64,000 nucleotides of DNA, from assembly GCA_036522075.1 (NCBI GenBank), contig DATDGM010000140.1:4004-68003 (forward strand), written 5' to 3'. This stretch comes from Candidatus Sulfotelmatobacter sp. (lineage in GTDB: Bacteria > Acidobacteriota > Terriglobia > Terriglobales > Acidobacteriaceae). Both the position numbers and the translations under genes were made by a program. Positions 21,886 to 41,928 of this stretch are shown here, in pieces (the first letter of the stretch is position 1; every line of letters starts with the position of its first letter). The notes under the pieces were generated by a model. The model made no database searches. It had not been told where the DNA came from and saw nothing but the letters and a program-made list of their open reading frames with translations.

Positions 21886-22412
21886 CCCGAATCGGAATCG
21901 GTTCCGCGGGCGCTGTTGACTGGATCCTTATCCATCGATTGAATCTGGTAGTGGTTTGCCGATCCATTCACCGGCGCGATAAATCGATATCCCCGCCTTA
22001 AAGCGTCTCGACAAACCGAGGAATTCTCCGAATCATCATTCAGCGCTTGCCGGAGTTTCTTGACCGCGCTATTCAGGCTGAGGTCTCAGAAGTAGCTGTA
22101 CGGTGCTCGACGCTGATTTCCAATCGCGAAAACGTCGTTCGAGCAGACGCTATTCGGAGTGACAGAAAGGAGTCCTGCGGCGCAATTCGCCGCAGAGCTC
22201 CTTGGATCACGACAGAGCGAACCGTGAGAGCCGTGGCGAATGCGACTGCTTACCAAAACGAGTTCCTCTGACGCCGGCCGCAACGGATCGCCGGGAGGGC
22301 GACCGATGCTAAGATGGCATTTTAATTCCCGCAGCATCGGCAGGGCTTGGGACAAGCGATATGGCGAGGTCGGTGATGTTTTTCTTGTTGCTTCTTGTGA
22401 CCAACGCCTCAT
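21882..22412 (-). pseudogene. Decayed winged-helix (OmpR/CadC-type) regulator remnant
   Basis: The minus-strand 108-aa ORF ends at a TGA. The same frame continues DLSLNSAVKKLRQALNDDSENS...RRGYRFIAPV. The expected PRFVETL segment is only readable in a +1-shifted frame. Together this indicates an in-frame stop plus frameshifts. The remnant is paralogous to the N-terminal domain of 15455..18763. Confidence 0.45.
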
Positions 22413-23167
22413 TGGCCCTGCTATACCCTTTTAGCCACTCCCGGCTTCTTCTTGTGGCCGTAATTTACGGCGCCGTCACACTGCTCGTCCTCTACCTGTT
22501 GTTTCATCCGCGCAACCAATGGCTGGTCGCCAACCGGTCGCGGGTCGAGGGCGCGGGTTGCCTGGCCCTGACGTTCGACGATGGCCCGGATCCGGTGGAT
22601 ACGCCAAAATTACTCGACCTACTCCGTGAGAAAGGTGTGAAAGCAACATTTTTTGTGGTGGGGAAGCGGGCGGATCAATATCCGGAAATAGTGCGCCGCG
22701 CTTGGATGGAAGGGCACTTGGTCGCCAATCACACCTGGTCGCACTATTCTTTATTTTGTTTTCTCATGCCCCGTCGGCTGCGGGCTGAGATCGAACGTGG
22801 CACGGAGAGCGTTCGCCGCAGTTGTGGTTTCCGGCCGCGCTTTTTCCGCTCGCCGGTGGGCATGCGTCACCCGCTTCTGGGGCCTTATCTCAAGGATGCG
22901 GGGCTGGAGTATGTTTCTTGGACGATTCGGACGCGTGATACACTCACTGCGAATTCCAGCGTTCTGGCCCGTCGCATCTTGAAAGCGGCAAGCGGGGACA
23001 TCATCCTGCTGCACGATCATTTGCCTGGCGGGACGGATGCCATGCTGCAAGCCCTGCCTCGGGTCATCGACGAGCTCAGGCAACGGGGATTCGAATTCGT
23101 CCTGGCCGGCCCACGCGAGGATGCCGGGGGAACACTGGAGCCGCCGGCGTGCGAATCTGTGCCCTAA
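22361..23167 (+). CDS. Polysaccharide deacetylase (NodB homology domain) with N-terminal membrane anchor
   Basis: 268-aa ORF with hydrophobic N-terminal helices. NodB motifs are present: LTFDDGPDP, TFFVVG and ANHTWSH. Confidence 0.9.
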   Translation: MARSVMFFLLLLVTNASLALLYPFSHSRLLLVAVIYGAVTLLVLYLLFHPRNQWLVANRSRVEGAGCLALTFDDGPDPVDTPKLLDLLREKGVKATFFVVGKRADQYPEIVRRAWMEGHLVANHTWSHYSLFCFLMPRRLRAEIERGTESVRRSCGFRPRFFRSPVGMRHPLLGPYLKDAGLEYVSWTIRTRDTLTANSSVLARRILKAASGDIILLHDHLPGGTDAMLQALPRVIDELRQRGFEFVLAGPREDAGGTLEPPACESVP

Positions 23168-23823
23168 TTCCGGCATTCAATGAGGCTCCTCACATCGCCA
23201 AGGTTGTGGAAGGGGCCCGGCAGCATGTTGCTGAAGTCGTCGTGATCGACGATGGCTCCGGCGATGCGACGGCGGACATTGCCCGAAACGCCGGCGCTAC
23301 TTGTTTGCAATTGCCAAGAAATTGCGGCAAGGCCTCGGCCCTGCGTGCCGGCATCGCTTTCGCGCGCGACCACAACTTTACCTACGCGATCACCCTCGAT
23401 GGCGATGGCCAGCATCTGCCGGAGGATATCCCGGCCATGCTTCGCGTCGCCGACGAAACTGGAGCGGACCTGATCATTGGCGCGCGCCGTTTCGATCGCG
23501 CCCTCATGCCTCGCTCCCGCTATTTCTCGAACATCATTGGCAGCCGGTTGGCATCGGCGCTCATTGGCTGCGAAATCCGCGACAGCCAGAGTGGATTCCG
23601 GTTATTCCGACTGGACAAACTTGGCGCGGCCAAACTGCGGAGCCGGTGCTACGAGCTCGAGATGGAAATCCTGATCAAGATGGCCCGGTCGGGCTGCACC
23701 ATTGCGCATGCTCCCGTGCGCATGATTTACGACGATGGCGAGGCGCGCTCCAAGATGAAGCCTGTCAGGGATACGGTGCGTGTCTGTCTATGGTCGTTGG
23801 CATTTCGCTTTCTGGGAGCGTGA
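23149..23823 (+). CDS. Family 2 glycosyltransferase (Dpm1/ApeJ-like)
   Basis: 224-aa ORF with a GTG start overlapping the previous gene by 19 nt. Motifs ALIPAFNEAPHI, VVVIDDGSGDAT and TLDGDGQH are present. Confidence 0.9.
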   Translation: MRICALIPAFNEAPHIAKVVEGARQHVAEVVVIDDGSGDATADIARNAGATCLQLPRNCGKASALRAGIAFARDHNFTYAITLDGDGQHLPEDIPAMLRVADETGADLIIGARRFDRALMPRSRYFSNIIGSRLASALIGCEIRDSQSGFRLFRLDKLGAAKLRSRCYELEMEILIKMARSGCTIAHAPVRMIYDDGEARSKMKPVRDTVRVCLWSLAFRFLGA

Positions 23824-23913
23824 GATGTTGCGGCGATTCAGACTGTTATGCGCTCCGCTCGCGTCCTTGATTTTTTCGGGGTTGCTGGCCGCCCAGTCCA
23901 ACGACCTTGCTGA
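23743..23913 (+). repeat. Copy A of a ~170-bp direct duplication (3' end of GT2 gene plus a truncated LolA-like signal-peptide ORF)
   Basis: It aligns by eye over its full length with 33869-34035. Shared blocks include GCTCCAAGATG, GCGTGTCTG, GGCATTTCGCTTTCT, GCGATTCAGA, TATGCGCTC, CTGGCCGCCCA and CTGCTGA. Copy A encodes a 44-codon ORF (23825-23959), MLRRFRLLCAPLASLIFSGLLAAQSNDL..., which mirrors the N-terminus of the LolA-like protein at 33948. Confidence 0.8.
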
Positions 23914-23970
23914 CCCCCATCTGGGAGGAGGCGGCACGGCGTTTGTGATGGGGAGATAGTAGCGAGCGGC

Positions 23971-25122
23971 GTGGTGTCGGCCTCATGGCCAAGCGGACCA
24001 CGGAAAGGCCACCAGGTGATCCGAGCATTTGAGGCTCAAGCCCGCAAGTTCATAACCCTCTTGCTAAAGGAGAGGCTTGACCCAGGCCGCGCTGCCGCCG
24101 CCGTATTCCTGGGAATTTTCATCGGCATTGTGCCCATCTACGGGTTTCAAACTCTTGCCGCAGTGGGCGTGGCTTTGCTCTTCAGACTTAACAAGCCCCT
24201 GACCGTGGCCGGAACCTTCATCAACAATCCGATGCTCCAGCCCCTGATTGTTGTCTCCTCAGTGGAACTGGGCTGTTTGCTCCGCGGCGGCTCATTCCAA
24301 CCTCTGTCCGCCGTGGCTATCGCGCCCACACATCTCAGCAAGGAGCAGCTTTTCATCTGGGTGATTGGCAGCGTGGCACTGGCTATCCTGGTCGGCGGCG
24401 TTGGGGCGGCGATTACTGCGGTTGTGGTCCATCTTCATCGAAAGGCGCCTGCCAATTCGCTGTTGCGGGAGCGCGTCCGCTTTGTGAACGGGATGTTTGC
24501 CCAATGCGCGCGACCGGCTCGCGGCTTCGTCCGCTGGAAACTCCGGCTGGATCGGATCTTTGAATTACTTGCCGCCGAAAACCTGGGATCGGGAACGGTA
24601 GTGGATCTGGGCTGCGGTTACGGCATGGCTCTTTGTTTTGCGGCTTTCGGCGACAACCGCCGGCGCCTGGTGGGGTGCGACTTAGATGCCCATCGCATCG
24701 CCGTCGCTCGCCAGGCACTCGGCACCCTGAACGCAGATGTGACCGTAGCCGACATCCGTCATTTCGACCTTCCGCCAGCCGGTTTAATTTTAATTCTGGA
24801 TGTCTTGCAGTATTTGCCCGCGGCTGAGCAACCGGCCCTGCTGAAACGTTGCTGCTCGGCGCTCGCGCCAGACGGAATTTTGGTTTTTCGGGTCCATGAT
24901 CGCGAACGCGGCCTCCGGTCCGCGATCACCATGGCTTTCGAGCGGTTAATCTTCGCGTGCGGGGGCGACGGCTTCCGGCCCCGAATCCTCTCCATCGCCG
25001 AGTACCGCAGCGCGCTGGAGGACGCCGGTATGAAGTTGGAAGAGCGCCGTTTCCAGAATCGTTTGCCCCTGGCCCACGTTCTATTCGTCGCCAGAAAATC
25101 TTTGGCGGAAGCTGCGCGATGA
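23971..25122 (+). CDS. DUF2062 membrane domain fused to class I SAM-dependent methyltransferase
   Basis: 383-aa ORF. The N-terminus has GIFIGIVPIYGFQTLAAVGVALLFRLNKPLTVAGTFINNP, the DUF2062 pattern. The C-terminus has VVDLGCGYGM (SAM motif I) and ILILDVLQYLP. Confidence 0.85.
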   Translation: MVSASWPSGPRKGHQVIRAFEAQARKFITLLLKERLDPGRAAAAVFLGIFIGIVPIYGFQTLAAVGVALLFRLNKPLTVAGTFINNPMLQPLIVVSSVELGCLLRGGSFQPLSAVAIAPTHLSKEQLFIWVIGSVALAILVGGVGAAITAVVVHLHRKAPANSLLRERVRFVNGMFAQCARPARGFVRWKLRLDRIFELLAAENLGSGTVVDLGCGYGMALCFAAFGDNRRRLVGCDLDAHRIAVARQALGTLNADVTVADIRHFDLPPAGLILILDVLQYLPAAEQPALLKRCCSALAPDGILVFRVHDRERGLRSAITMAFERLIFACGGDGFRPRILSIAEYRSALEDAGMKLEERRFQNRLPLAHVLFVARKSLAEAAR

Positions 25123-25228
25123 AGGTCCGTTTCCGGCGCTTCATGGACCACAAGGCCCGCTGGTTTCTGGAAAACGCGTTGCCGGTTGATCACGCACGGT
25201 CATCTATATGTTTTAAACTTTTGGCTGG

Positions 25229-26449
25229 TTGCCTCTCTTGACTGATATCCATAAAACCATCGTCGTTACCGGCGTCGGGGTCGTCAGTCCCTATGGCGTC
25301 GGGTTGGATTGCATGCAGGCGGGCATGTTATCGGGCAAGTGTTGTCTGGCGCCCACGAAGGATCTGTATCCCGGCTTCGAAGGAACGACGGCCCAGGTCC
25401 GGGGATTGCCGCTTTTGGCGGAAGACTCGAGTTCCCGATACTCGCGCACGGATCAACTCGCGACGGCGGCGGCGCAGGACGCAATGGCGCACACCGGTCG
25501 CGATGGCTCTGCCTTCCGGGAGAGCGGCGTTGTGATAGCGAACACGGTCGGGGGCTTGACCGAGATCGACACCGGAATCGCCAAAGATCCGGCGGCTTGG
25601 TTTCGGCGACCCGGCAATCTGTTGCGCGTCGCTTCATATCCGTTCGCGCACGTTGCCGACGCCGTTGGTGAGCATTTCGGGATTCGCGGACCGCGCTGTG
25701 CCATCTCTGTGGCTTGCGCATCCGGAGCGACGGCGATCGCACTGGCTGCCAACATGCTGCTCGATGGGGCCGCGCCCATTATCCTGGCAGGCGGCAGCGA
25801 CCCGCTGTGCCCGTTCACGTTGAGCGGATTTAACTCCCTGCGAGCCTTAGACCCAAACCCCTGCTCTCCCTTCGACCAGAATCGCAAGGGCCTGAACCTG
25901 GGCGAAGGATCCGCAATTCTCGTACTCGAAACCCTGGCCGGGGCCACCGCGCGTAATGCCAACGTTATGGCCGTGCTGCGCGGATGGGCCATGACCAATG
26001 ATGCATTTCATACCACCGCGCCACAGGAACAGGGAATCGGGTTGGCCGATTGCATACGCCTTTCCATGGAAATGGCGGAGGTGAGCGGCGATGAGATCGA
26101 GTATGTGAATGCCCACGGCACGGGCACACCTCTCAATGACATTGCCGAGGCCACCGCCTACGAGACCGCTTTCCGGGGACGCAAGCATCCCATTCCTGTA
26201 TCTTCGACAAAGTCATATTTCGGACACTGCCTGGGTGCGGCTGGCGCCTTGGAGGCAGCCATTACGATCATGGCCGTTCGTTCAGGAGCACTGCTTCCGA
26301 CGCTGCGGCTCGTCGATCCCATCGAGAGCCCCGGCGTTGACTGGTTGAGAGGAGAAGTGAAACGCCAGCCGCTGCCGCTGGCCATGTCGGTTTCCAGCGG
26401 CTTTGGCGGCAGCAACGCCGTGCTCATATTCGGGAGTGGTCCCTCGTGA
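25229..26449 (+). CDS. Beta-ketoacyl-ACP synthase (FabF/KAS II-like, catalytically complete)
   Basis: 406-aa ORF with a TTG start. It has the active-site block ISVACASGATAI, the His motifs HTTAP and NAHGTGTPLND, and KSYFGHCLGAAG. Confidence 0.95.
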   Translation: MPLLTDIHKTIVVTGVGVVSPYGVGLDCMQAGMLSGKCCLAPTKDLYPGFEGTTAQVRGLPLLAEDSSSRYSRTDQLATAAAQDAMAHTGRDGSAFRESGVVIANTVGGLTEIDTGIAKDPAAWFRRPGNLLRVASYPFAHVADAVGEHFGIRGPRCAISVACASGATAIALAANMLLDGAAPIILAGGSDPLCPFTLSGFNSLRALDPNPCSPFDQNRKGLNLGEGSAILVLETLAGATARNANVMAVLRGWAMTNDAFHTTAPQEQGIGLADCIRLSMEMAEVSGDEIEYVNAHGTGTPLNDIAEATAYETAFRGRKHPIPVSSTKSYFGHCLGAAGALEAAITIMAVRSGALLPTLRLVDPIESPGVDWLRGEVKRQPLPLAMSVSSGFGGSNAVLIFGSGPS

Positions 26450-27519
26450 CTCCGAATTTAGCGCCCGTCATTATTACCGGTGTCGGTTCCGTGAGTCCTT
26501 ATGGCCCGCTGGCAGGCCTAATTCCACAGAGTCCCCTGGAACCCACTACGATTACCGCCTGGACAACCGCCGGGCTGCGCCGCGCCTTTCTCGTACCGGC
26601 CTTTCGCCCTGCCAGCGTAGTGCCGGGCCTGAAGACGAGGCGTCTCGATCGCCTGTCGGCGTGGGCCTTGGTGGCCTCCGCCTTGGCTATTAAGGATGCT
26701 GGGATCGACCTAAACCAAGTGGACCGATCCCGGGTTGCAGTTATATTCGCCACCGCCTTCGGCTGTGTTGAACTCACGGAAGCGTTCTACCTCAGCGCTG
26801 CCGCCAATGGCTGGAACGGAACCGATCCCAGCACCTTCCCGGAGACTCTCCCCAGCACCCCGGCTAGTCACGTGTCTCTGTTTCACGGCCTGCGCGGGCC
26901 TAACGTCACCGTGAGTAACAAGGACTTTGCGGGCGAGAACGCCCTGATGCAAGCCGCTTCTCTGCTTCGCCATGGTCAGGCCGACTTGGCCATTGTCCTG
27001 GCGGGTGACACGCTGTCGCAAAGCCTCTATTCATGGTATGACGTGGCAGCCGTACTCTCGCCGGCGTGCTACAACTCGGATCCCGTACCGGAAGCCGGTG
27101 GTTTTATCCCCAGCGAAGGTGTAGCGGCATTGGTGATGGAATCGTCGGGCCGCGGGGATATCCGCTCCGGCGCCCGTTCTTATGCCCGACTCTGCTCGGG
27201 CCGCTGGGCAGCGGGCGGTCAACCGGCGGAGATGATCCGGCAGATGCTCGACGGATCCGTCCCAAGTCTGACAGTGTGCAGCGGGAATGGCGCGCCTTGT
27301 GCCACCAGTCCTACAACCGCCTTGGCTCGCGAGATTTCCGGCGATGGCGCCGTTATTATAAGTCCACAGACGTTTGCCCTGGGTTTGGCCGGTACGGGCG
27401 CTCTTTTTCACTTGATCCTGGCGTTAAGCAGCCGGCCCGTCCATGGGCAAGCCCTGTTCTTAGCAACCGCCGGCCATAGTGGATTTGCAGCACTTCTTCT
27501 GGAGTTGCTTGCAATATGA
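26446..27519 (+). CDS. KS-like partner subunit lacking the active-site Cys (chain-length-factor/ApeC-like)
   Basis: 357-aa ORF overlapping the KS stop by 4 nt. It has the thiolase-fold pattern GPNVTVSNKDFAGENALMQAASLLRHGQADLAIVLAGD. By my alignment to GP..TACA.G, Asp sits where the catalytic Cys should be. Confidence 0.8.
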   Translation: MTPNLAPVIITGVGSVSPYGPLAGLIPQSPLEPTTITAWTTAGLRRAFLVPAFRPASVVPGLKTRRLDRLSAWALVASALAIKDAGIDLNQVDRSRVAVIFATAFGCVELTEAFYLSAAANGWNGTDPSTFPETLPSTPASHVSLFHGLRGPNVTVSNKDFAGENALMQAASLLRHGQADLAIVLAGDTLSQSLYSWYDVAAVLSPACYNSDPVPEAGGFIPSEGVAALVMESSGRGDIRSGARSYARLCSGRWAAGGQPAEMIRQMLDGSVPSLTVCSGNGAPCATSPTTALAREISGDGAVIISPQTFALGLAGTGALFHLILALSSRPVHGQALFLATAGHSGFAALLLELLAI

Positions 27520-28514
27520 ATGTGCGCATTGCAGCCGCGGCGTATGCCGTTCCGCCCGACGATGAGGCCGTGGAAGCAGTCTTGGCGCGGGAACGAACTC
27601 GAGTGGAGACAACGCTTTCTGTGTTGAGCCCGGAGTCGAGACGAAGAGCCCTGGAAGGTCTCGGACTGAATCGCGTCCGCATCTGCGGCGACAAGAAACT
27701 TTATGACTTGATTCTCGAAGCCGCCTCCAAGGCGATAGCCGAAGCGGGGATAACCGCGCGTGACATTAATCTCATCCTCGATTACAGCACCTTGTCCAGC
27801 GAGAGCTCACAGGGTCTTTCGTTCGCGCACCAACTCAGCGCCGATCTAGGGGCTGAAACCGCGATGATCTTGAGTTTTAAAGCCGGCGGATGCGCGGCAC
27901 TTCACGTCGCCATCAAGACCGCGCTGGGCTGGATGACTACGGATGAAAGCATTCAGACAGTCTTGCTGGTCACTGGCGACGCCGCACCGCCAGGCAACCG
28001 CTCGTTGCTTCCTATCACCATGCATGGCGACGCCAGCAGTGCCGTCATTCTGCGCCGCCAGGCCACGGAGGGCCCTTCGCTGTTGGGCGTTGAAGCCATG
28101 ACGCTCGGTCACCTTCATAATGCGATTGCCCTGGTCAGAACCAACGGCCACCTCGATATTATGGTCGATGCTCTATGCATTGAGCGAGAGGTAATGCCGA
28201 TCTACTTTCTCAACATGCTTCTGGTAGTGAATAAGGCGCTGGCCGCGTCTTCCTTGAGTTTGACTGATATTGACCATTTCATCTATTCCAACATCAGCCT
28301 GCGGGACCGCGAGGGTTTCCGCAAGATGCTGGGACTGCCCAGGGGCAGCCTGCCGCCGACTCCCATGGCAGAATATGGCCATACCTTTGCCAGCGACTTA
28401 GTCATCAATTATGTGAATATGCGGCGCGAGGGGCTGATTCGTCCCGGGCAATTGTTGCTGTTCGCATCGGCTGGCGTCGGCTTCACCTGGGGAGTAACGC
28501 TTGCCCGAGCCTGA
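27516..28514 (+). CDS. KAS III (FabH)-like enzyme with non-canonical catalytic residues
   Basis: 332-aa ORF with a 4-nt overlap to the previous gene. The Cys motif FKAGGCAALHVAIKTA is present. The region equivalent to HQAN reads YSNISL, and the GNTSAAS equivalent reads YGHTFASD. Confidence 0.8.
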   Translation: MNVRIAAAAYAVPPDDEAVEAVLARERTRVETTLSVLSPESRRRALEGLGLNRVRICGDKKLYDLILEAASKAIAEAGITARDINLILDYSTLSSESSQGLSFAHQLSADLGAETAMILSFKAGGCAALHVAIKTALGWMTTDESIQTVLLVTGDAAPPGNRSLLPITMHGDASSAVILRRQATEGPSLLGVEAMTLGHLHNAIALVRTNGHLDIMVDALCIEREVMPIYFLNMLLVVNKALAASSLSLTDIDHFIYSNISLRDREGFRKMLGLPRGSLPPTPMAEYGHTFASDLVINYVNMRREGLIRPGQLLLFASAGVGFTWGVTLARA

Positions 28515-28661
28515 AGCAACCCTGGCTGCCGGACCGGCTTCTGGGTAAGGCAGCGGCCAGGCTCAATGCTTGCGCTCAAGATCGAAGATCACTGTGGCGT
28601 TAAATGCTTTTTGCGGATTTGGGCAGGAATGTTCACACGGTGCGTACCAGGCTGAGTTCCC

Positions 28662-29486
28662 ATGCGTCGCATACAGTTCATCGAACTCCATGAGCAACCC
28701 TGGTTCCCGTCATCGCTTCGAGATGACGTTACGGATGCGGTTCAGTTTGGCTTCAACCTCCTGCAGGCCTACGCGCCCATCGCCCCGCTGCTGCAAAACG
28801 TGATTGACTCCACGAGGAACGGGACAAACGCCGGCCGATCGATTATCGATATGTGTTCTGGCGGAGGCGGTCCGTGGCCGGATCTTTCTCGAAAGCTGCG
28901 ATGCCGGGACGACGGAGGGGATTCCGCGGGCCTGCAGGTTTGGCTCACCGATAAATATCCGAATCTCGAGGCTTTCCAAAGTGTTAGCGCGTCTTCTGAC
29001 CACCACATTACCTTCTATCCGGAGTCGGTTGACGCGATGAAGGTTCCGGGCGCACTGAAGGGGCTGCGTACCATGTTTACGTCGTTCCATCATTTTTCGC
29101 CGGAGGATGCTCGCGCCATTCTGCAGGATGCCGTCGATGCTGGCGAAAGCGTCGGCATTTTCGAGATCACCAGGCGCTCTCCGTCAACAATCGGAGTTAT
29201 TTTCGTCGGCATTCTCCTGATGTTTTTGCATACTCCCAGGATCCGTCCCTTCCGCTGGACGCGATTGCTGTGGACATATTTGATTCCGATCATTCCCTTG
29301 GTCCTGCTATTCGATGGAGTGGTGTCTTGCCTGCGCACCTATCGTCCACAGGAACTGCGTGAGATCGTAGAAAAACTGACCTCTTGCCAATACCAATGGG
29401 AGATCGGTGAGCTAGCCACTGGAAGGGTGCCAATTACCTATCTGATCGGATACCCCGGCGCATCGTCCTACGAATTAAGCCGATAA
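28662..29486 (+). CDS. Putative SAM-dependent methyltransferase with C-terminal membrane helices
   Basis: 274-aa ORF. IIDMCSGGGGPW resembles SAM-binding motif I. The C-terminus has hydrophobic helices (IGVIFVGILLMFL, LLWTYLIPIIPLVLLFDGVV). Confidence 0.65.
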   Translation: MRRIQFIELHEQPWFPSSLRDDVTDAVQFGFNLLQAYAPIAPLLQNVIDSTRNGTNAGRSIIDMCSGGGGPWPDLSRKLRCRDDGGDSAGLQVWLTDKYPNLEAFQSVSASSDHHITFYPESVDAMKVPGALKGLRTMFTSFHHFSPEDARAILQDAVDAGESVGIFEITRRSPSTIGVIFVGILLMFLHTPRIRPFRWTRLLWTYLIPIIPLVLLFDGVVSCLRTYRPQELREIVEKLTSCQYQWEIGELATGRVPITYLIGYPGASSYELSR

Positions 29487-29743
29487 CATTCATTCAAAAA
29501 CAACAGAGTCGGCATCGGGGCTCATTTCTCGAAGGTGCGAAAACTCAGGCGCATACGATCATTCTCCGCTACTTATTCACGATTTTGAAATCGCGGGCGA
29601 TGTTATTGCGGGCGATCATCGCCTTTGCTTTCTTGGCTTTAGTTGTCATGACACACTCGTATGCCCGCTTCCGTGATGACGTTATGTTCCTACAGGAACA
29701 TTACGCTCCGGCCGAAAACTTACGATGCGCGAAACAAACCTGC

Positions 29744-30808
29744 TCACCGAGCTAACCCTAGAGTGGAAACCAAACCCAGAAATGCGCGGCTCGCCCACCC
29801 CACCGGATCGAGCAACACTGTGCGCCGCTCCAGCATGGCGGCAACCGGCTGTCCCTTATAGCTGGCGATTTGCCGGTAGCGCGAGATGAAAAACAGCACG
29901 CGCAAAAAAAGTTTCCATTTGAGCGGGGCAAAATAATCGGGCGTCACGAACGGCACCGCGTGGCCGTCTTTCACTTCGGCAATGAAGTCCTTGAAAGTTG
30001 CCGCGCGGGAAAGAGAGGTAACGGAACTGGCGACCAGCAGATGGCTGTCTCCTCCGCCGACCACCGGTTTGCGCCACTGGCGGGCAAGTTCCAGGACGCG
30101 ATCGTTCTCCTCTCGTGGCCGCATCCCGTTTACTTCCAATGCATGAATCGCCCAGCCGTAGCGGGAGAGCAGCTCCGTCACCGGAATCGCGTCCACTTTC
30201 GGTTCCCAGGCTACAAGAGGATGGTTCAAGACGACCAGGCAGCCGCTCGCGGCGAGGGTTTCAAACAATTCGTCGTAGCGTCCACCCCGCGCAGCCGCTT
30301 GCATTCGAGAGTGCGTTTCCTCGACTTCACTCTCAGGCAGGCCACTTACTCCCAGGTGAAACAAGTGTCCCTGGAACCAGAGTGAGAGCTCCTCGCTGAC
30401 TGCGACGCGGCCATCCAGATCGGGCCGGCTGCGTAGCAGAGCGAGGCTGCCGGCAAATTCGTCGTGATCGGTAATGGCCAGGTGGACCCCATCGAAGCCC
30501 CAATTGGCCGCCGCCGCTGCCTCCATCTGATAAACCTCTTCGGGGGTATAAGGAGGATTGAACGTTATCTCTGCGTAATTCAGATCAGACACACCGCCCA
30601 GGCCAAACGCCCTTTGCAAAATGCTACTAAGAGGACGCATGTAAGCCAGCTTGACCACCTGGTTTAATGCCGCCAGCTTCTCCACGGAGTGGCAGGAGTG
30701 GTTGTGCAGGGAAACCGAGTAGCCGAACTCGCGGTCCGGGTGGGGACACTCGCGGTAGGTATAGTTCTCGATCTTCCAGGCTGACCGGCGTCTCATTCCA
30801 GCGTTCAC
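29744..30808 (-). CDS. PHP-family metal-dependent phosphoesterase
   Basis: 354-aa ORF with PHP-type His/Asp motifs: SLHNHSCHS, LAITDHDE, VVLNHP and GGGDSHL. Confidence 0.8.
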   Translation of the reverse strand: MNAGMRRRSAWKIENYTYRECPHPDREFGYSVSLHNHSCHSVEKLAALNQVVKLAYMRPLSSILQRAFGLGGVSDLNYAEITFNPPYTPEEVYQMEAAAAANWGFDGVHLAITDHDEFAGSLALLRSRPDLDGRVAVSEELSLWFQGHLFHLGVSGLPESEVEETHSRMQAAARGGRYDELFETLAASGCLVVLNHPLVAWEPKVDAIPVTELLSRYGWAIHALEVNGMRPREENDRVLELARQWRKPVVGGGDSHLLVASSVTSLSRAATFKDFIAEVKDGHAVPFVTPDYFAPLKWKLFLRVLFFISRYRQIASYKGQPVAAMLERRTVLLDPVGWASRAFLGLVSTLGLAR

Positions 30809-31011
30809 GGGGAATGCGTCAGTGTAATTTCACTCCGCGACACCCGGCAAGAGAAGTTGTCGCATAAGAATGTGATCTAATACTCTTCGACGACTGGGCA
30901 GGCGGTTGGACCTGCCTGGTGTGATCTAGCGGCCATCAATATGAATGGCGCCAAGTTGATCTGGGAACCGACTGCAGCCGTCCAGGCGGAACTCAACGAA
31001 GGAGAACTTGG

Positions 31012-31452
31012 ATGAAGCGGCTGAACATCACGGCGACACTATTGCTGCTCTGTATTTCCTTCGCAATTCCTGTTACCGCCGCCAAGGTGGAGGTAGAAGG
31101 CAAGGCATGGCTTGAGGCCCAGAAAGATTCCGCTGCCATCAACGTGAACGGCGCATGGGACTCGGACGAATGGGGTGATTTCCATCTTCTACAGGCCGAG
31201 GGAAGCCGGGACGTGAACGGCAACGGCGGGGGATATGATGTTACAGGTGTAGTCAGCGGCAAGCGTCTATTCATGCTTTTCTCCACCAACCACACTGTAG
31301 AATATTGCGCTACCCTCAGTCCTAACGGCGAAAACAGCTTGATCGGGACCTACTCAAACCGAAAGTCGCGGCTGCACTCCGGCCTTTGCCAGGAGAAGAC
31401 CAGGCCGATGAACATGACGAAGAAAAACAGCGCGCCGGGCCCCGCTCGATAG
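31012..31452 (+). CDS. Hypothetical small secreted protein
   Basis: 146-aa ORF preceded by GGAGAA. It has a signal peptide (MKRLNITATLLLLCISFAIPVTAAKV). I recognise no domain. Confidence 0.55.
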   Translation: MKRLNITATLLLLCISFAIPVTAAKVEVEGKAWLEAQKDSAAINVNGAWDSDEWGDFHLLQAEGSRDVNGNGGGYDVTGVVSGKRLFMLFSTNHTVEYCATLSPNGENSLIGTYSNRKSRLHSGLCQEKTRPMNMTKKNSAPGPAR

Positions 31453-31568
31453 AGGTTCTAAGGGAAACAGGGACGACGATCGGGTGGATATCTTGGGCGT
31501 TCTTCAAAATCGTTGGTTCCAGCAAGTAGACGACAGAGTGGCCGGCTCAACACGGAGCGTCAAGGCAA

Positions 31569-33668
<2,100 letters not shown>

Positions 33669-33676
33669 GTTGATCA

Positions 33677-33811
33677 GGATTTTCGGTAGTGGTGCAGTTT
33701 GGCTTACGCGCCAGGCCAGCTAAGCGGGAGATCCTTCACTTCGCCTGAAAAACGGCTCCGTTCAGGATGACACCGCAAATAAAAACCCAACTGAACCACT
33801 ACCGGATTTCC
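33677..33811. repeat. REP/MITE-like intergenic element: ~26-nt imperfect inverted repeats around an 83-nt spacer
   Basis: GGATTTTCGGTAGTGGTGCAGTTTGG (33677-33702) pairs with CCCAACTGAACCACTACCGGATTTCC (33786-33811), matching at 22 of 26 positions as reverse complements. The same arm motif (GGAAAT.CCGGTAGTGGTTCAG) recurs at 53560-53609. Confidence 0.7.
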
Positions 33812-33868
33812 ATCTCAGTCCGTGGCACCATCGCGCATGCTAGTCTGTAGCATTATGACGATGGCCGG

Positions 33869-34035
33869 GCGTGCTCCAAGATGCCGGTACGAGACACGGC
33901 GCGTGTCTGGTTCCGGTCCCCGGCATTTCGCTTTCTACCCGCGGGATATGGTCCCGCGATTCAGATTGCTATGCGCTCTGCTTGCGTTTTCGATTTTTCC
34001 GGGAGCGCTGGCCGCCCAATCCGACGATCTGCTGA
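33869..34035 (+). repeat. Copy B of the ~170-bp direct duplication (GT2 3'-end remnant plus start of the intact LolA-like gene)
   Basis: See copy A. In one frame copy B reads MPVRDTARVWFRSPAFRFLPA, mirroring the GT2 C-terminus MKPVRDTVRVCLWSLAFRFLGA. It then runs into the true LolA-like start at 33948. Confidence 0.8.
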
Positions 34036-34577
34036 ACCGAGTTTGGGAGGGCGTGCAGCAGGCGCAGAGAAAATACACGAGCAGCTGCGGGACTATTACG
34101 GAAACCCGCATGTCTAGCCTGATGGTGAAACCTCTGGTGCTCCGTGGCAAGTTTTGCTCCGAAGGCACCACCCGATTCGCGCTGGACTACTTCGAACCGT
34201 CGAGCATGCGCATACGCTTCAACGAGAACTACCTGAACGTTACGACTGGCGGCAAGACCGAAGTGATGGAAATCGGAAGAAACGTTCGCCGGGCGCAGTC
34301 TTATTTCGGCCGGGAGAGCTCCCTCGGGAACCTGAAAAAAAACTTCACGATCACCGTGCAAGAAGACAGCCGGGATTACCAAATGAAGCTGGTTCCGCGG
34401 TCGGATACTTTCCGCCGCAGGCTGAATTACCTGGTCGTGAAGCTGGACAAAGGAGACTTCTTTCCTCGGTCGCTGGAGGTGGACGGCAAGAGCGGCGTCA
34501 ACAGTGTATTCGTCATCGACGTGAGCTCGCTGAATCCGAAGATTCCGGCGGATAAGTTTGAGGTATATAAACCGTAG
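33948..34577 (+). CDS. LolA-like outer-membrane lipoprotein-carrier fold protein (ApeM-like)
   Basis: I prefer the internal ATG at 33948 (MVPRFRLLCALLAFSIFPGALAAQ is a signal peptide) within ORF 33822..34577. The body and the C-terminal ...NPKIPADKFEVYKP resemble LolA-family proteins. Confidence 0.8.
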   Translation: MVPRFRLLCALLAFSIFPGALAAQSDDLLNRVWEGVQQAQRKYTSSCGTITETRMSSLMVKPLVLRGKFCSEGTTRFALDYFEPSSMRIRFNENYLNVTTGGKTEVMEIGRNVRRAQSYFGRESSLGNLKKNFTITVQEDSRDYQMKLVPRSDTFRRRLNYLVVKLDKGDFFPRSLEVDGKSGVNSVFVIDVSSLNPKIPADKFEVYKP

Positions 34578-35026
34578 TGATCAAGCCCAGGGTGATTGAG
34601 CGGAGTGAAATCGAGACGCTGATTCCCCATCGCCCTCCGTTCTTGTGGATCGACCGTGTCGAAGAACTGGAGCCGGGAGTTCGTTGTGTTGCGGTGAAGT
34701 TTGTCGATCCGGCGAACCCGATTTTTGCCGGGCATTTTCCTGCCAAGCCCATTCTGCCGGGGGTTCTTCTGATCGAAGCGGTGGCCCAGACCGCTGGAGT
34801 AATGCTGGGATCATCCGCGCCGCAGGTGACTGCGGGAAGCGGGGGAGGAGTAGCCCTGCTCGCGGCCGTGAACCGCTTCAAGTTTCTCAAGCCCGTGACT
34901 CCGGGGCAAACACTTCGCGTTGAAACCAAAAAGCTAACCGAGGCTGGCCAATTGGTATGCATCGGCGGCACGGTGTGGGTAGACGGCGAGGTGGTAGCGA
35001 AGGGCGAGTTGTCGGTGTCGGCTTGA
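34577..35026 (+). CDS. FabZ/FabA-like 3-hydroxyacyl-ACP dehydratase (hot-dog fold)
   Basis: 149-aa ORF with a GTG start overlapping the previous stop by 1 nt. HRPPFLWIDRV...FAGHFPAKPILPGVLLIEAVAQ carries the catalytic His and Glu context. Confidence 0.9.
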   Translation: MIKPRVIERSEIETLIPHRPPFLWIDRVEELEPGVRCVAVKFVDPANPIFAGHFPAKPILPGVLLIEAVAQTAGVMLGSSAPQVTAGSGGGVALLAAVNRFKFLKPVTPGQTLRVETKKLTEAGQLVCIGGTVWVDGEVVAKGELSVSA

Positions 35027-35094
35027 TGGACGAGCGGTGAGCGGGCCTACGATGGAAAGCGCCACCCGATGATCCGAACATTTCAACCACGCGT

Positions 35095-37704
35095 GTGGGC
35101 GTTCGCATGATGACCCGTTGCATGCGCTGGGTGGGCGGCCTGGTGGTAGGCCATCCGGGGTTGGTTACAGCCCTGAGCCTGGTCGTTACCTTATTGTTGT
35201 ATGCGAACATCCACAACCTGCGAACCGGCACCGACCTGACCGATTTGTTTGGGAATCGCGACCCACAATGGCGAGCCGCGAGCCAGATCGGCAAAGAACT
35301 GGGTTATGGCAATCAGCTCTTCGTGCTGATCGAGGCTCCGGCGGGTCGAACGGAAAATGAAACGGACGTCACCGGCCAAATGGAAGACATGGCCGACCGT
35401 CTGACCGCCGACATGCAAGCCAGCGGGCTGTTCCTGGATGCGCGCTGCGGCTTGCAGGACGAAGAACTGCTCAACATGGTGCGGTTCTTTACCTGGAACT
35501 TTCCGTCATTCGCGCTGCCCGAGCAAACCGAAGATTTGAAGCGGCGGCTGGATCCGCGACAGATTCATCAAAGCGTTCGCCGCGCGGGAAGCGAACTGGT
35601 CACTCCATTCTCATCATTGGGAACCAATTACTTCGTCGCCGATCCTTTGGGCCTGATGGAAGTGGAGGGAAACCGCCAGGGATTTTCGCAGTTTGCCAAA
35701 TTCGACCTCAACTGGGGGTCTGGAAACCGGTTCTTCAGTAAAGATCACAAGGCGCTGCTCATCATTGCCGAACCTCGCCAGTCGGCTATGGATTACAAGT
35801 TCGCCGAGCAAGTGATGCGGTGGACGCGGGAGCACATCCAGTCGATGACGGCGCAACCCGACTTGCGAGACTCCGGAGTGCGGGCGATTGCAGCGGGGGC
35901 TTACGTTTACGCGGAGCAGGAGCACAAGCTCATCGAAACAAATATCCGCCGAATTTCCCTCATTTCCATCGTGGGAAATCTGCTGTTGTGCCTGCTGATC
36001 TATCCGAGGATTCCACTCCTGCTTTTATCGCTGCTGCCCGCCAGCCTGGGCATTGTTTGGACTACGGGCGTAGCCAGTTTCTATCCGGGAGAAGTAAATC
36101 TGATCAGCCTGTCTTTTATTGCGATCCTGGCGGGGCTGGGCGACGACCAGGTCGTACATTTCTTCAACCGGGTTCCGCAGGAGTGGGCCAAGGATGAATT
36201 CACGAATGAGCGCACGCTGAATGATGCGGTGCTACGCACCTACGAAACCACCGGGCTTAGCGTTGTCCTCTGCATAGTAACGGCGGCCACCGCAACCGCC
36301 TCACTGGCCACCGCCAGTTTCAAGGGACTGGCGGAGTTCGGGTTCATCCTGACGGTGGGAATGTTCATGATGATGGTCCATACGCTGCTGACGGTTCCGG
36401 CGCTGATGCGGCTGTGGTGGCGAGTTTCGAAGCCGCGCGCGCCGCAGACCATTACCTTCCGGTTGCTTCCCTGGGTGGCGCAGAAATCGGTTGATTTTGT
36501 GGGCCGGCACGCCCGCCTTGTAGTCGGCTTGGGCTGCGGAATGTTCCTGCTGTCATTAATGTTTCTGCCGGCCATCAAAATGGGAAAGCACTTCGAGATC
36601 GCTGGCGCCGATAACCCTGCCGTGGCGGCGCAGAACCTGCTTTCCGCAAGGTTCGGCATCGAGGGCAGTCCGAACGTGCTCCTGATCTCCGGCGGCGAGC
36701 AGGAAGCACTGGGTAGAGCCGAAGAATTGACGGCCGGGCTGGAAGCCTATCAGCATCGCGGGGTCATCAAGTCCATCTTCTCACCGACAACGCTGCTCCC
36801 GTCAGTTCGAACACAAAGTGAACGAGCCCGTTCGTTGGCCGGCGTCAATCTGGCGGCCTCGGCTCGTGCCCTCGAGGATTCGCTGCGCGAGAATGGTTTT
36901 CGAACTGAGCAGTTCCAGCCCTTTATCGATCGGTTGCGAAAGCTAGGACAAGGGCTGGGACAAGGCGGTGATGCGATTACCCTGGAAACTGCCGCCAAGT
37001 TCCTGCCGCCAGGAGTGCTGGACAACAGCATTCGCAAGACCGGGGACGGTAGCTACGTGGCGGCCATCACCTTTTATGGTGCCGATCCCGATGCTGTCGA
37101 CGTAGTTCCGGAAAGTGTCATCCAGTCCTGGCAAAATCAATTTGGCCGGTTCGTGGAGTTCTCCTTCGACAAGATGAACCGCGACCTGCAGAGGCAAGTG
37201 CTTCATGACAGTAGCAGAGCATTAGTGTGGACGGCGGCTGGCATTCTGTTGGTTGTCTACCTTTGTTTTCGCAACCTCCGCGTGTCATTCATCGTGCTGA
37301 TCCCGATCGCATTCGGCATTGTTACAACTTTCGGCCTGCTGCTGTTGGTGAGGCACCGCTTCAGTTTCATGTCGATTACGGCGATTCCGCTCATCATCGG
37401 CATTGGCATCGACAATGGCATCCATTTGGTGCGCCGATACCAGGAGAACGAGCGGAACGAAATCCTCGCGATCGCCAAAGCTTCGGGCGCGGCGCTGATT
37501 CAATCGAACCTGACTACGATCGTTGGGTTCGGGGCGCTGATGACTTCCAGTTTCGCGCCGCTTGTGGAAATGGGCCTGGTGACTTCGTTGGGGGTCGCGC
37601 TCGCACTGGCCGGTGGCTTGTTGTTGATTCCCGCTGTTATTCTGCTTGGGGAACGGCGCCGTACAGCGACGGCCTTGCCAGCAACGAGTGCGAGCGAGGG
37701 TTGA
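35095..37704 (+). CDS. MMPL/RND-superfamily lipid exporter (ApeL-like)
   Basis: 869-aa ORF with two blocks of multiple TM helices, each preceded by a large soluble loop. This matches MMPL/HpnN-type transporters. The start may instead be ATG 35107. Confidence 0.85.
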   Translation: MGVRMMTRCMRWVGGLVVGHPGLVTALSLVVTLLLYANIHNLRTGTDLTDLFGNRDPQWRAASQIGKELGYGNQLFVLIEAPAGRTENETDVTGQMEDMADRLTADMQASGLFLDARCGLQDEELLNMVRFFTWNFPSFALPEQTEDLKRRLDPRQIHQSVRRAGSELVTPFSSLGTNYFVADPLGLMEVEGNRQGFSQFAKFDLNWGSGNRFFSKDHKALLIIAEPRQSAMDYKFAEQVMRWTREHIQSMTAQPDLRDSGVRAIAAGAYVYAEQEHKLIETNIRRISLISIVGNLLLCLLIYPRIPLLLLSLLPASLGIVWTTGVASFYPGEVNLISLSFIAILAGLGDDQVVHFFNRVPQEWAKDEFTNERTLNDAVLRTYETTGLSVVLCIVTAATATASLATASFKGLAEFGFILTVGMFMMMVHTLLTVPALMRLWWRVSKPRAPQTITFRLLPWVAQKSVDFVGRHARLVVGLGCGMFLLSLMFLPAIKMGKHFEIAGADNPAVAAQNLLSARFGIEGSPNVLLISGGEQEALGRAEELTAGLEAYQHRGVIKSIFSPTTLLPSVRTQSERARSLAGVNLAASARALEDSLRENGFRTEQFQPFIDRLRKLGQGLGQGGDAITLETAAKFLPPGVLDNSIRKTGDGSYVAAITFYGADPDAVDVVPESVIQSWQNQFGRFVEFSFDKMNRDLQRQVLHDSSRALVWTAAGILLVVYLCFRNLRVSFIVLIPIAFGIVTTFGLLLLVRHRFSFMSITAIPLIIGIGIDNGIHLVRRYQENERNEILAIAKASGAALIQSNLTTIVGFGALMTSSFAPLVEMGLVTSLGVALALAGGLLLIPAVILLGERRRTATALPATSASEG

Positions 37705-37710
37705 TTGGGA

Positions 37711-40700: not shown

Positions 40701-40728
40701 TATTTTGATCTTCAAGCCGATGCACTAA
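37711..40728 (+). CDS. Large secreted protein: N-terminal unknown domain, central LolA-like lipoprotein-sorting domain, C-terminal putative beta-barrel
   Basis: ORF 37705..40728. I prefer ATG 37711, which has GAGGG 11 nt upstream and starts just after the MMPL stop. Signal peptide is [15 protein letters not shown]. The central [47 protein letters not shown] matches the LolA_like sorting-protein pattern. The C-terminal ~400 aa are rich in alternating aromatic and Gly residues. Confidence 0.8.
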
Positions 40729-40738
40729 GGCCGGAAAT

Positions 40739-41515
40739 ATGACTGAAACAAACGTGGCTAATCGCACCGGTGATGGTAGCGAAGATCGGAAGGTCGCATT
40801 AGTCACAGGCGCCTCGGGGATTATCGGCGGCGCCATCGCGCAGGCTCTGGGAAGCGCGGGGTTCCGCGTCGCCGTGCACTATCGTCACGGGAAAGAGTCC
40901 GCGGTTGCGGTGGTCGAGCGCATCGTGGCCGCGGGCGGAGAGGCTTCGGCAGTGGAAGCCGACCTCTCCCGCCAGGAGAGTGTTGCGCCTATGTTCGAGC
41001 GCATCGAACATCAATTTGGCCCAGTCGACTACCTGGTAAATAACGCGGGCATCAACCGCGATGTGCTATTGGCTTTTATGTCGGAGGAGCAGTGGGATGA
41101 AGTAATCGACACCAATCTCCGTGGCACTTATTTGTGCTCGCGGTTGGCCCTGCCGGGCATGATGCGCCGGGGGAGTGGAGCCATTTGCAATATCGTGTCA
41201 CCCGCCGGAATTCGCGGCCAGTCCGGTCAGTGCAATTACTCGGCATCCAAAGGCGGCATGATCGCGTTCACCAAGGCTCTTTCTCGCGAGGTGGGACCGT
41301 TCCACATCCGAGTAAACGCCATCTGCCCGGGTGTGATTCCGAGCCCTATGTCCGCAAAATACATTGAGAAAGAGGAGAAGCGACTGCTTTCCGAAATCCC
41401 GCTGGGGCGGTTTGGCAAGCCTGAAGAAGTGGCTCCGCTGGTAGCGTTCCTGGGGTCCGAGGAGGCAAGTTACATCACCGGACAGGTGATCTCTGTGGAT
41501 GGGGGACTGCTGTAG
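40739..41515 (+). CDS. 3-oxoacyl-ACP reductase (FabG-like SDR)
   Basis: 258-aa ORF with the cofactor motif [16 protein letters not shown] and the catalytic YSASKGG (YxxxK). Confidence 0.95.
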
Positions 41516-41661
41516 CTTGGGTTCTTGCGAGGGACGAAAGATCACGGTCATCAGGGAGACGAAGCCACACGAAGGGCAGCTTCCAGAGGGCCTTTCAGGA
41601 GAGTTCGTGTTGATTTCGCCGGTGAGCTTTGTGGTATTCTGGGGCGTTGCAAGTGAACGAT

Positions 41662-41928
41662 ATGGCAAGCGTTAAGGAGCAACTCAAGGCCATTATATTG
41701 AAGAGCTTGCGGATCACCGACTTGACCCCCGAGGATCTGCGCGACGATCAGCCGCTGCTCGGAGGAGAACTGGAAATCGACTCCATCGACATACTCCAAC
41801 TCATTCTGGAGATTGAGAGGCATTTCGGCATCAAGCTGGTACAGGCCAACTTCAACCAGAAAAACCTCGAAAGTGTTAACGCTTTGGCGGCGATCATCGA
41901 ATCCAAAGTAGCGGAAGCAAAGACCTGA
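41662..41928 (+). CDS. Acyl carrier protein
   Basis: An internal ATG at 41662 gives an 88-aa protein with the phosphopantetheine attachment context LGGELEIDSIDILQLILEIE. Confidence 0.9.
   Translation: MASVKEQLKAIILKSLRITDLTPEDLRDDQPLLGGELEIDSIDILQLILEIERHFGIKLVQANFNQKNLESVNALAAIIESKVAEAKT

Follow-up and report, generated by a model that had tools for sequence, protein, structure and literature searches.

The window analysed here, a stretch of 64,000 nucleotides (nt) from Candidatus Sulfotelmatobacter sp. (contig DATDGM010000140.1), carries a gene cluster for lipid biosynthesis and export in which the junction between a glycosyltransferase gene and a LolA-like gene is present twice, about 10 kb apart (Table 1). 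Gene identities were obtained from Pfam, NCBIfam and PDB searches of the window's open reading frames (ORFs). The cluster begins with a polysaccharide deacetylase (PDA) that overlaps the start of a GT2 glycosyltransferase, and continues with a DUF2062-methyltransferase (MT), a KS and its CLF-like partner, a KASIII (KAS3), a 274-residue protein (h274), a PHP-domain protein (PHP), a 146-residue protein (s146), a Tes-like radical SAM protein (rSAM), a LolA-like protein whose close homologues carry the annotation Candidatus Sulfotelmatobacter / Terriglobales, a FabZ/ApeP-like dehydratase (DH), an MMPL/RND exporter (MMPL), a 1007-residue protein (big), a ketoreductase (KR), an ACP and an LPLAT acyltransferase.

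A pairwise blastn comparison aligned positions 23696-23928 colinearly with 33825-34050 over 233 nt, with four small gaps, 74.7% identity and E=1e-38. The sequence-only reading of this DNA had reported a colinear duplication of about 170 bp at 23743-23913 and 33869-34035; the duplication is real, and about 60 nt longer than was claimed. Its longest identical run is about 15 nt and its two copies are 25% diverged. Comparison of the whole window with itself returned three off-diagonal repeat groups in all, the GT2/LolA pair (E=6e-21) being the sole one inside the cluster. The stops, indels and ORFs of the two copies also agree with the anatomy that had been described. Copy A holds the point where the GT2 ORF truly ends, its 3' end, and two bases past the GT2 stop begins a 44-codon orphan ORF (23825-23959) that starts MLRRFRLLCAPLASLIFSGLLAAQSNDL and has a LolA-type signal peptide at its start. 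Copy B, read in the GT2 frame, gives ...GTIAHASL*HYDDGRACSKMPVRDTARVWFRSPAFRFLPA, with a stop in frame and deletions of 3 nt and 2 nt, and then leads into the intact LolA-like gene of 209 codons. The differences between the copies are spread evenly over the three codon positions (11/7/12 in the GT2 tail, 7/7/8 in the LolA 5' end), as expected where one member of each pair is a pseudogene.

Past the repeat, homology resumes between 23930-24030 and 34964-35083, which hold the 3' end of DH, the spacer and the 5' end of MT (68% identity over 120 columns, E=2.6e-8; 45.5 bits, the maximum of 200 shuffles being 22.9). The upstream stretch 23696-24030 (copy 1) is colinear with 33825-35083 (copy 2) except for one 913-nt deletion in copy 1, from about codon 35 of LolA to about codon 129 of DH, so that copy 1 is copy 2 minus a 913-nt internal deletion. 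A second junction, absent from the sequence-only reading, is duplicated as well: 25155-25266 and 42818-42935 are the mirror image of the GT2/LolA repeat, with a dead LPLAT tail before the live KS and a dead KS start after the live LPLAT. Here 25219-25266 and 42881-42928 are 79% identical over 48 nt (E=4e-9), with a colinear 11-mer upstream (25164-25174 and 42827-42837) and a best score of 41 bits against a shuffle maximum of 21.

Table 1. Genes and relics of the cluster and its upstream neighbours. Primes mark relics; blocks A to E and cluster copies 1 and 2 are those of the duplication proposed in the text.
Feature	Position	Strand	Assignment	Basis or remark
P450	starts 19470			Pfam/NCBIfam/PDB search
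Fatty-acid desaturase	starts 20983			Pfam/NCBIfam/PDB search
PDA, polysaccharide deacetylase	22361-23167	+	Block A, copy 1	Pfam Polysacc_deac_1, E=1e-30
GT2 glycosyltransferase, live	23149-23823	+	Block A, copy 1	Pfam Glycos_transf_2, E=4e-24
Repeat copy A: live GT2 3' end and dead LolA 5' stub	23696-23928	+		blastn against 33825-34050
LolA', signal-peptide region, ~34 codons	23825-23928	+	Copy 1	Start of orphan ORF; 79% identical to live LolA 5' end 33948-34050
DH', last ~20 codons of FabZ/ApeP-like dehydratase	23930-23972	+	Copy 1	Colinear pair with 34964-35083; aligns with DH 3' end of type E and type I loci
MT, DUF2062-methyltransferase, live	23971-25122	+	Block C, copy 1	Pfam DUF2062 and Methyltransf domains
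LPLAT', about the last 26 codons	25155-25232 (approx.)	+	Copy 1	Directly upstream of and overlapping KS start; marks loss of MMPL through LPLAT 5' part
KS	25229-26449	+	Block E, copy 1	Pfam
CLF-like partner	26446-27519	+	Block E, copy 1	Pfam
KAS3, KASIII	27516-28514	+	Block E, copy 1	Pfam
h274, 274-residue protein	28662-29486	+	Boundary of the two copies	No family match (Pfam search)
PHP-domain protein	29744-30808	-		Pfam PHP_C
s146, 146-residue protein	31012-31452	+		Position unstable among relatives
X', C-terminal stub of B12-binding radical SAM gene	31463-31564	+		tblastn with L016 X residues 473-506: 56% over 34 residues, E=2.6e-5
Tes-like (GDGT-MAS-like) radical SAM protein	31569-33668	+		PDB 7TOL; Pfam Radical_SAM and Zn_ribbon_HMPTM
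MITE-like inverted-repeat element, ~125 nt, core ~33684-33804	33677-33811 (135 nt)	.		29-nt arms, 79% complementary; fold z=-3.55
GT2', dead last ~41 codons	33825-33947	+	Copy 2	In-frame stop and indels
LolA-like gene, live	33948-34577	+	Block B, copy 2	NCBIfam LolA2_flexi 54.8 bits, below cut-off
DH, FabZ/ApeP-like dehydratase, live	34577-35026	+	Block B, copy 2	
MT', DH-MT spacer, ~30 nt of MT 5' end (35055-35086) and last few MT codons before MMPL	35027-35094	+	Copy 2	Within pair 23930-24030 / 34964-35083
MMPL/RND exporter	35095-37704	+	Block D, copy 2	Pfam
big, 1007-residue LolA_like/DUF5686 protein	37705-40728	+	Block D, copy 2	Pfam
KR, ketoreductase	40739-41515	+	Block D, copy 2	Pfam
ACP	41629-41928	+	Block D, copy 2	ORF with motif DSIDILQL
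LPLAT acyltransferase	41996-42907	+	Block D, copy 2	Pfam
KS', first ~12-15 codons of lost second KS	42891-42935	+	Copy 2	Overlaps LPLAT stop; 25229-25266 against 42891-42928, 76%

Gene order and relics in related loci

The cluster was compared with 80 loci (with 10-kb flanks, one genome per species) from a LolA-alignment scan, onto which the window proteins were mapped by tblastn; cluster 3' ends were added from a metagenome scan with a type I LPLAT, giving about 160 related loci in all, numbered here with the prefix L. Three arrangement types recur. Type E (34 loci) reads PDA-GT2-LolA-DH-MT-MMPL-(distant Tes paralogue)-big-KR-..., and LPLAT-KS-CLF-KAS3 lies farther downstream. Type I (16 loci) reads PDA-PHP(-)-X-rSAM-Y1(-)-(Y2(-))-GT2-LolA-DH-MT-MMPL-big-KR-LPLAT-KS-CLF-KAS3, where X, Y1 and Y2 are proteins with B12-binding and Radical_SAM domains. 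Type W, the type of the window (28 loci), reads PDA-GT2-MT-KS-CLF-KAS3-h274-(s146)-PHP(-)-rSAM-LolA-DH-MMPL-big-KR-LPLAT.

GT2 immediately precedes LolA in 50 of the 80 Terriglobales species loci (gap between high-scoring segment pairs 5-140 nt, median 15.5), and MT stands between DH and MMPL in 49 of them. LPLAT-KS-CLF-KAS3 is contiguous at the cluster 3' end in type E and type I loci, the order from MMPL to LPLAT is the same in both as in the window, and the sister type I has both PHP and the Tes-like rSAM upstream of GT2. The overlap of PDA with GT2 in the window aligns with type E loci, as in the empty-site relatives, and intact GT2 orthologues are present in relatives of all three types that cover the GT2 position. 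The window's PHP is 83-86% identical to that of type I and has the same orientation; h274 was seen solely in type W loci of the 80-locus mapping. In a neighbour-joining tree of LolA, DH, MMPL, big and KR, the basal loci are those of type E, which is paraphyletic; the type I loci make up a grade, and type W is nested and monophyletic, so that the W arrangement is the derived state, and GT2 followed by LolA is ancestral, as the sequence-only reading had supposed. Since the W arrangement is common to 28 species, and their LolA proteins share only about 70-90% identity with that of the window, the rearrangement is an old event.

Some features of the relatives are recorded here for themselves. Type E loci (L012 at 15062-16540, L145 and others) have a plus-strand PHP after KR, an X-like B12-binding radical SAM gene before LPLAT and, in the interval from MMPL to the 1007-residue protein, an rSAM that is distantly Tes-like (about 30% identity); Tes-like enzymes thus seem to have long belonged to this family of clusters, at a different position. 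A PDA/GT2 junction duplication of about 55 nt flanks the PHP(-)-X-rSAM-Y1-Y2 block in type I loci (L016 at about 600-700 and 9300-9400; L021, L036, L044, L051); it is suggestive, the relic parts extending only about 10-25 nt beyond what the live genes need. After KAS3, type I loci (L083, about 14190-15790) have a 533-residue ORF without counterpart in the window, whose C-terminus looks, by eye, like that of adenylate-forming (AMP-ligase-type) enzymes; relics of h274, s146, PHP, X and rSAM were looked for downstream of KAS3 in type I loci, and none was found. The small protein s146 had been called secreted in the sequence-only reading; the site of its gene is the PHP/rSAM interval in the window, the h274/PHP interval in most W loci and upstream of PDA in some type I loci; two copies of it were seen in L005 and L068 (L005 813-2708; L068 979-1807; also L049 317-754).

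Relics of cluster genes are found in the window and in its W relatives at the places from which these genes are missing. LPLAT', DH', MT' and KS' recur in other W genomes, where their absence would have told against homology. Directly after GT2 stand the LolA' stub, the DH' tail and then the native DH-MT spacer. In the relatives LolA' has been eroded to different extents (a 20-nt stub in L001, part in L022 and L033, none in L037), and the orphan ORF has been cut short or lost in L001, L017, L022 and L037. LPLAT' can be aligned to the LPLAT 3' end in type I and type E loci, overlaps the KS start exactly as LPLAT does in both types, and is present in seven of eight W loci examined, from both W subclades (absent in L033). 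On the other side of this junction, KS' stubs of 16-23 codons follow LPLAT in L004, L005, L010, L143 and L147. Longer MT' relics occupy the same place as in the window, with about 80 residues from both the N- and C-terminal parts in L040 and shorter pieces in L004, L001, L007 and L002. The X' stub lies directly upstream of rSAM, and the full X gene of type I has PHP on one side and the Tes-like rSAM on the other; L004 (139 residues, 66%; 7298-7708) and L040 (7380-7505) keep longer X' relics. The window lineage has thus lost all three of the B12-binding radical SAM genes X, Y1 and Y2 that flank the Tes homologue in type I, with only stubs left, and no other copy of them was found within the window.

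The dead GT2 tail deserves closer attention. Both of its indels are common to all 12 loci of subclade W1 that were aligned, and its left breakpoint is common to most (L011 and L014 differ at the left end), so that the pseudogene formed once, before this subclade radiated. In subclade W2 the tail has been lost altogether, leaving rSAM-LolA gaps of 26-114 nt, mostly under 75 nt. L001 lacks the dead tail, its rSAM stop being followed by 22 nt and the LolA ATG, and an early blastn match of the GT2 tail inside the rSAM 3' end of this locus turned out to be a spurious extension. L040 is among the closest relatives of the window, and its spacer between rSAM and GT2' holds two fragments of Y2 (82% over 28 residues, E=3e-12, and 83% over 23 residues, E=1.5e-8; 9685-9871), in the order and orientation of type I, where Y2 is a minus-strand gene directly upstream of GT2. 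What is left in the dead tail thus belonged to a full GT2 gene that stood in a type I-like context, and is no duplication boundary; its left edge is a deletion breakpoint rather than the edge of a duplicated target, and the right half of the W cluster is a decayed type I arrangement.

Together, the relics DH', MT', LPLAT', KS', X' and Y2' indicate that the 233-bp repeat is what remains of a far longer duplicated stretch, the GT2-tail/LolA-start repeat being one of six relic pairs or stubs in the window and the best preserved pair among them. All relic/live pairs are 62-79% identical, a similar divergence that would fit one event. GT2' is 66-82% identical when the window is set against eleven relatives; in the same comparison the neighbouring rSAM, LolA, DH and MMPL genes are 69-87% identical at third codon positions and 88-98% at first and second positions. 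GT2', the only relic measured, decays near-neutrally, at about the synonymous rate. The relics do not appear to be functional: scans for promoters and terminators in both repeat copies gave nothing above shuffled expectation, and the dead tails have not conserved the Shine-Dalgarno-like GGGAG that belongs to the ancestral junction. Retention of the dead tail as a regulatory region was accordingly dropped, there being no promoter or terminator signal and a divergence that matches synonymous sites.

The deletion scar between rSAM and GT2' also contains the inverted-repeat element that the sequence-only reading had called REP-like. The inverted repeat is real, and its identity is that of a dispersed element resembling a miniature inverted-repeat transposable element (MITE). 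Copies occur at other intergenic sites in L006, L010, L013, L017, L047, L049, L052 and L054, with a partial copy in the window at 53560-53583, and the closest relatives L003, L004 and L040 have an empty site, with a putative 5-bp target duplication (GATTT). The element is a later insertion and no part of the rearrangement; a role as its mediator was rejected, as the element is dispersed, was inserted after the deletion and is absent from the site in the closest relatives.

A probable duplication with differential loss and its alternatives

We consider it probable that the repeat is the scar of a tandem duplication of the lipid cluster that was followed by differential loss of genes from the two copies. 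This is the process of tandem duplication-random loss (TDRL), by which changes of gene order in the mitochondrial genomes of animals are usually modelled, and the cluster would be a clean and well-documented case of a known process in an unusual setting. The ancestral order would have been A (PDA, GT2), B (LolA, DH), C (MT), D (MMPL, big, KR, ACP, LPLAT) and E (KS, CLF, KAS3), with the block of PHP, B12-binding radical SAM and Tes-like rSAM genes attached to the cluster. In an ancestor of the Sulfotelmatobacter-like lineage the cluster, or nearly all of it, would have become two adjacent copies, from either of which redundant genes would then have been removed by separate deletions. Copy 1 would have kept PDA-GT2, MT and KS-CLF-KAS3 (A, C, E), and copy 2 LolA-DH and MMPL through LPLAT (B, D), resulting in the order A C E (h274, PHP, s146, rSAM) B D, with short stubs of the lost genes at each scar.

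Three of the four features that define TDRL are present. The gene order of the window is obtained when two subsequences, each in ancestral order, are interleaved; the ancestral order A B C D E is itself seen in 50 type E and type I loci and in L083-L131 and L145. Strands are unchanged, since all genes of the rearranged cluster remain on the plus strand and PHP keeps its minus orientation of type I. Relics are found at five of the five predicted loss sites: LolA' and DH' after GT2, LPLAT' after MT, GT2' before LolA, MT' between DH and MMPL, and KS' after LPLAT. The relics also bear on where the second copy came from. The GT2' consensus has 93% identity with that of the live W GT2 tail, against 85% for E1 and 78-83% for type I, and shares one W-specific substitution with the live W gene, and the LPLAT' consensus is 87-88% identical to the live LPLAT of W and type I, against 80% for type E; both point to a duplication inside the lineage. 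We infer that the two copies arose from one tandem duplication inside the genome and that copy 1 once also held MMPL through KR, and we place the duplication either on the W stem or in a common ancestor with type I, likewise by inference.

Several observations weigh against this reading. Two intact copies of any cluster gene were found in none of the about 160 related loci, so that the duplicated intermediate is unseen. No relics of MMPL, the 1007-residue protein or KR were found in copy 1, nor of PDA in copy 2, which makes the whole-cluster extent of the duplication a matter of parsimony; the PDA relic was searched for between s146/h274 and PHP in W loci, with none found. The model calls for no fewer than five to seven independent deletions, and tandem duplications of large size are unstable. 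Should the type I order, in which PHP through Y2 part PDA from GT2, be ancestral, the intact PDA-GT2 overlap of W needs either a precise excision between the short junction repeats seen in type I or a duplication before the two types split. All trees are neighbour-joining trees on tblastn-derived pseudo-alignments, not maximum likelihood, and those of GT2 and MT place W outside E1 and type I in 71% of bootstraps and with E1 in 20%. The genes of copy 1 are somewhat nearer to type E (GT2 81%, MT 77%, KS 79%, KAS3 80%) than to type I (77-79%, 70-72%, 72-78% and 73-78%, respectively), and those of copy 2 show the reverse, a pattern that could hint at a different origin of copy 1. A still lower KS identity of 64% to type I was an artefact of comparing an N-terminal fragment; over the full length it is 72-78%.

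One variant of the duplication is possible, if rather unlikely: a single ancient duplication in the common ancestor of types I and W, resolved differently in each. Type I would have kept PDA and PHP-X-rSAM-Y from copy 1 and the rest from copy 2, and W would have kept alternating blocks and lost X, Y1 and Y2. Its appeal is that the intact PDA-GT2 overlap of W and the junction duplication of about 55 nt in type I would both be explained by a duplication in that ancestor.

It is improbable that the two copies had different sources, that is, that a second cluster was acquired horizontally from a related acidobacterium beside the resident one and was followed by reciprocal loss, the second copy being a xenologue. 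The identities just given speak for such a merger, as do the incongruent neighbour-joining bootstraps (LolA, DH and MMPL place W next to a subclade of type I in 93 of 100, in contrast to the GT2 and MT trees above) and the cluster flanks, which differ between arrangement types. However, the GT2' of copy 2 is closest to the live GT2 of copy 1 and shares its W-specific state, the LPLAT' of copy 1 is nearer to W and type I than to E, and in a site-pattern test W with type I was backed in seven of eight genes (nine sites in MMPL, ten in big and two in GT2; none in MT) and W with E1 in none. G+C is uniform (0.53-0.62, flat over the 10-kb segment between the repeat copies and over its flanks), and the identity pattern is also explained by a duplication before the split or by these genes having evolved faster in type I. 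A hybrid origin of the left half by horizontal gene transfer, at which percent identities and bootstraps hint, is thus unsupported by site patterns or relic consensus and is kept as a minor rival, a weaker third option behind duplication within the lineage, be it in the ancestor of I and W or on the W stem.

Less probable again are several small duplicative transpositions, in which a 1.3-kb copy from the GT2 tail to the MT 5' end would have been placed downstream of rSAM and a copy from the LPLAT tail to KAS3 after MT, the originals then being lost. The lack of MMPL, big and KR relics in copy 1 and of a PDA relic in copy 2 would be accounted for, and the relic pairs of the window do lie at block boundaries only. 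Nevertheless, copy 2 once had a full-length MT, as the N- and C-terminal relics in L040 tell, and a full GT2 preceded by Y2, so that it is an original contiguous cluster and not a small pasted piece. More events would be needed than with one duplication, the divergence of all relic pairs is similar, and the final order is exactly a one-step TDRL permutation.

Finally, the proposal of the sequence-only reading that the roughly 10-kb module MT-KS-CLF-KAS3-h274-PHP-s146-rSAM entered between GT2 and LolA in one step, by Campbell-type insertion, with the repeat as duplicated homology or target, is very unlikely: direct repeats do flank the segment and the empty GT2-LolA site does exist in relatives, but MT, KS, CLF, KAS3, PHP and rSAM are ancestral cluster members found at other positions in relatives, the homology of the copies runs past the repeat into DH and MT across the 913-nt deletion, four more relic types (LPLAT', KS', MT' and X'/Y2') lie outside the repeat, the copies are strongly diverged with no long identical run, and no compositional break, no tRNA and, in Pfam searches of all ORFs at 23971-33668, no integrase or transposase domain was found in the segment. 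A comparison of G+C as a test for foreign origin gave no signal. The other mechanism then offered, duplication plus replacement, comes close to the evidence; the process would have been duplication with differential loss. A transposon with target-site duplication was also rejected for the 10-kb segment, given a repeat of 233 bp, its 25% divergence and the lack of terminal inverted repeats bounding the segment; a short target duplication and inverted repeats fit only the 135-nt MITE-like element.

Cluster surroundings, related systems and significance

The neighbourhood of the cluster differs from lineage to lineage. Downstream in the window lies a UPF0182 gene (43080-45902) that was not found after LPLAT in other W loci (L001, L147, L148, L151), and the upstream P450 and desaturase were not seen beside the cluster in type E or type I relatives. 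A comparison of flanks found no flanking genes shared between arrangement types, which makes the flanks of no use to orient the event. Close before the desaturase gene, the 3' end of the P450 ORF contains 4.1 copies of the 12-nt unit AAGTTCCGAACA (20863-20911), which make overlapping palindromes (GTTCCGAAC / GTTCGGAAC); this could be a protein-binding array or a coding low-complexity tail. Elsewhere in the window, an 860-residue ORF (12830-15412) contains 5.3 copies of a 126-nt tandem repeat (14281-14943, 73% matches) whose 42-codon period suggests a protein repeat, and two adjacent minus-strand ORFs (49326-50477, 383 residues, and 50485-51633, 382 residues) are likely tandem paralogues, with 79% identity between 49597-49736 and 50753-50892.

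The W cluster shares with TDRL mitochondrial genomes the interleaving of two ordered gene subsets, unchanged strands and pseudogene stubs or spacers at the loss sites; it differs in being a lipid biosynthesis and export cluster of about 20 kb on a bacterial chromosome, and in that the duplicated state itself is unobserved. A full-text literature search for TDRL returned mitochondrial genome papers only, with no example of a bacterial gene cluster, and the papers it returned on duplication and loss of clusters concerned eukaryotes. The resemblance to Campbell-type integration, in which a single crossover of a circular element leaves direct repeats around the insert, ends with the direct repeats of a gene junction on either side of a stretch of several kilobases. 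In the window this stretch is no discrete foreign unit and has no recombinase or att-like site, the homology extends beyond the repeat with complementary deletions, and there are more relic pairs. As with reciprocal loss after whole-genome duplication in yeasts and plants, redundant copies have been resolved to one per gene, with survivors from different copies, here on the scale of one cluster and not of a genome; types I and W may have resolved the same duplication differently.

With the aryl-polyene/flexirubin-type clusters, exemplified by the ape cluster of E. coli (PMC8253772), the window cluster has in common KS with a CLF-like partner, FabZ/ApeP-like DH, KR, ACP, LPLAT, GT2, a LolA-like protein and an RND/MMPL exporter. 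The sequence-only reading had compared the ancestral GT2-LolA order with that of canonical ape clusters, which is only loosely right: in E. coli the order is ApeJ (glycosyltransferase), ApeK (thioesterase) and ApeL (LolA-like) (PMC8253772, Table 1), so that ApeK parts ApeJ from ApeL, whereas the ancestral acidobacterial cluster has GT2 directly before LolA. The window cluster further adds the Tes-like radical SAM protein, PHP, the DUF2062-methyltransferase and the polysaccharide deacetylase; no aryl-starter enzyme was seen in the window, and the LolA2_flexi score lies below the cut-off.

The Tes-like rSAM matches PDB 7TOL with E=3e-67 over residues 95-590 and scores 324 bits against NCBIfam Tes, under the 450-bit cut-off. 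It is a candidate acidobacterial homologue of the archaeal tetraether synthase, and so a candidate for the synthesis of glycerol dialkyl glycerol tetraethers of the branched type (brGDGTs); bacterial Tes homologues have been hypothesised to be brGDGT enzymes, a role that is proposed, not shown (PMC8941075).

The cluster offers an unusually complete molecular fossil record of gene-order change in a bacterial biosynthetic cluster: no breakpoint lacks a relic, dozens of relatives still show the ancestral order, and a clade of 28 species or more has the derived order fixed. If read as we propose, it indicates that duplication and differential loss can change the gene order of a bacterial lipid cluster with no help from mobile elements or foreign DNA, and it carries a warning that junction repeats around a block of genes are no proof of cassette insertion or 'mosaic assembly'. 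The wider interest of the cluster lies in its tetraether synthase homologue and in the loss of three neighbouring B12-binding radical SAM genes in the rearranged lineage. A link between the rearrangement and lipid methylation genes is more speculative. Should X, Y1 and Y2 be methylases of membrane-spanning lipids (brGDGTs or iso-diabolic acid), the architecture of the cluster would predict the lipid methylation phenotype across subdivision-1 Acidobacteria, and the biological source of brGDGT methylation proxies would become testable.

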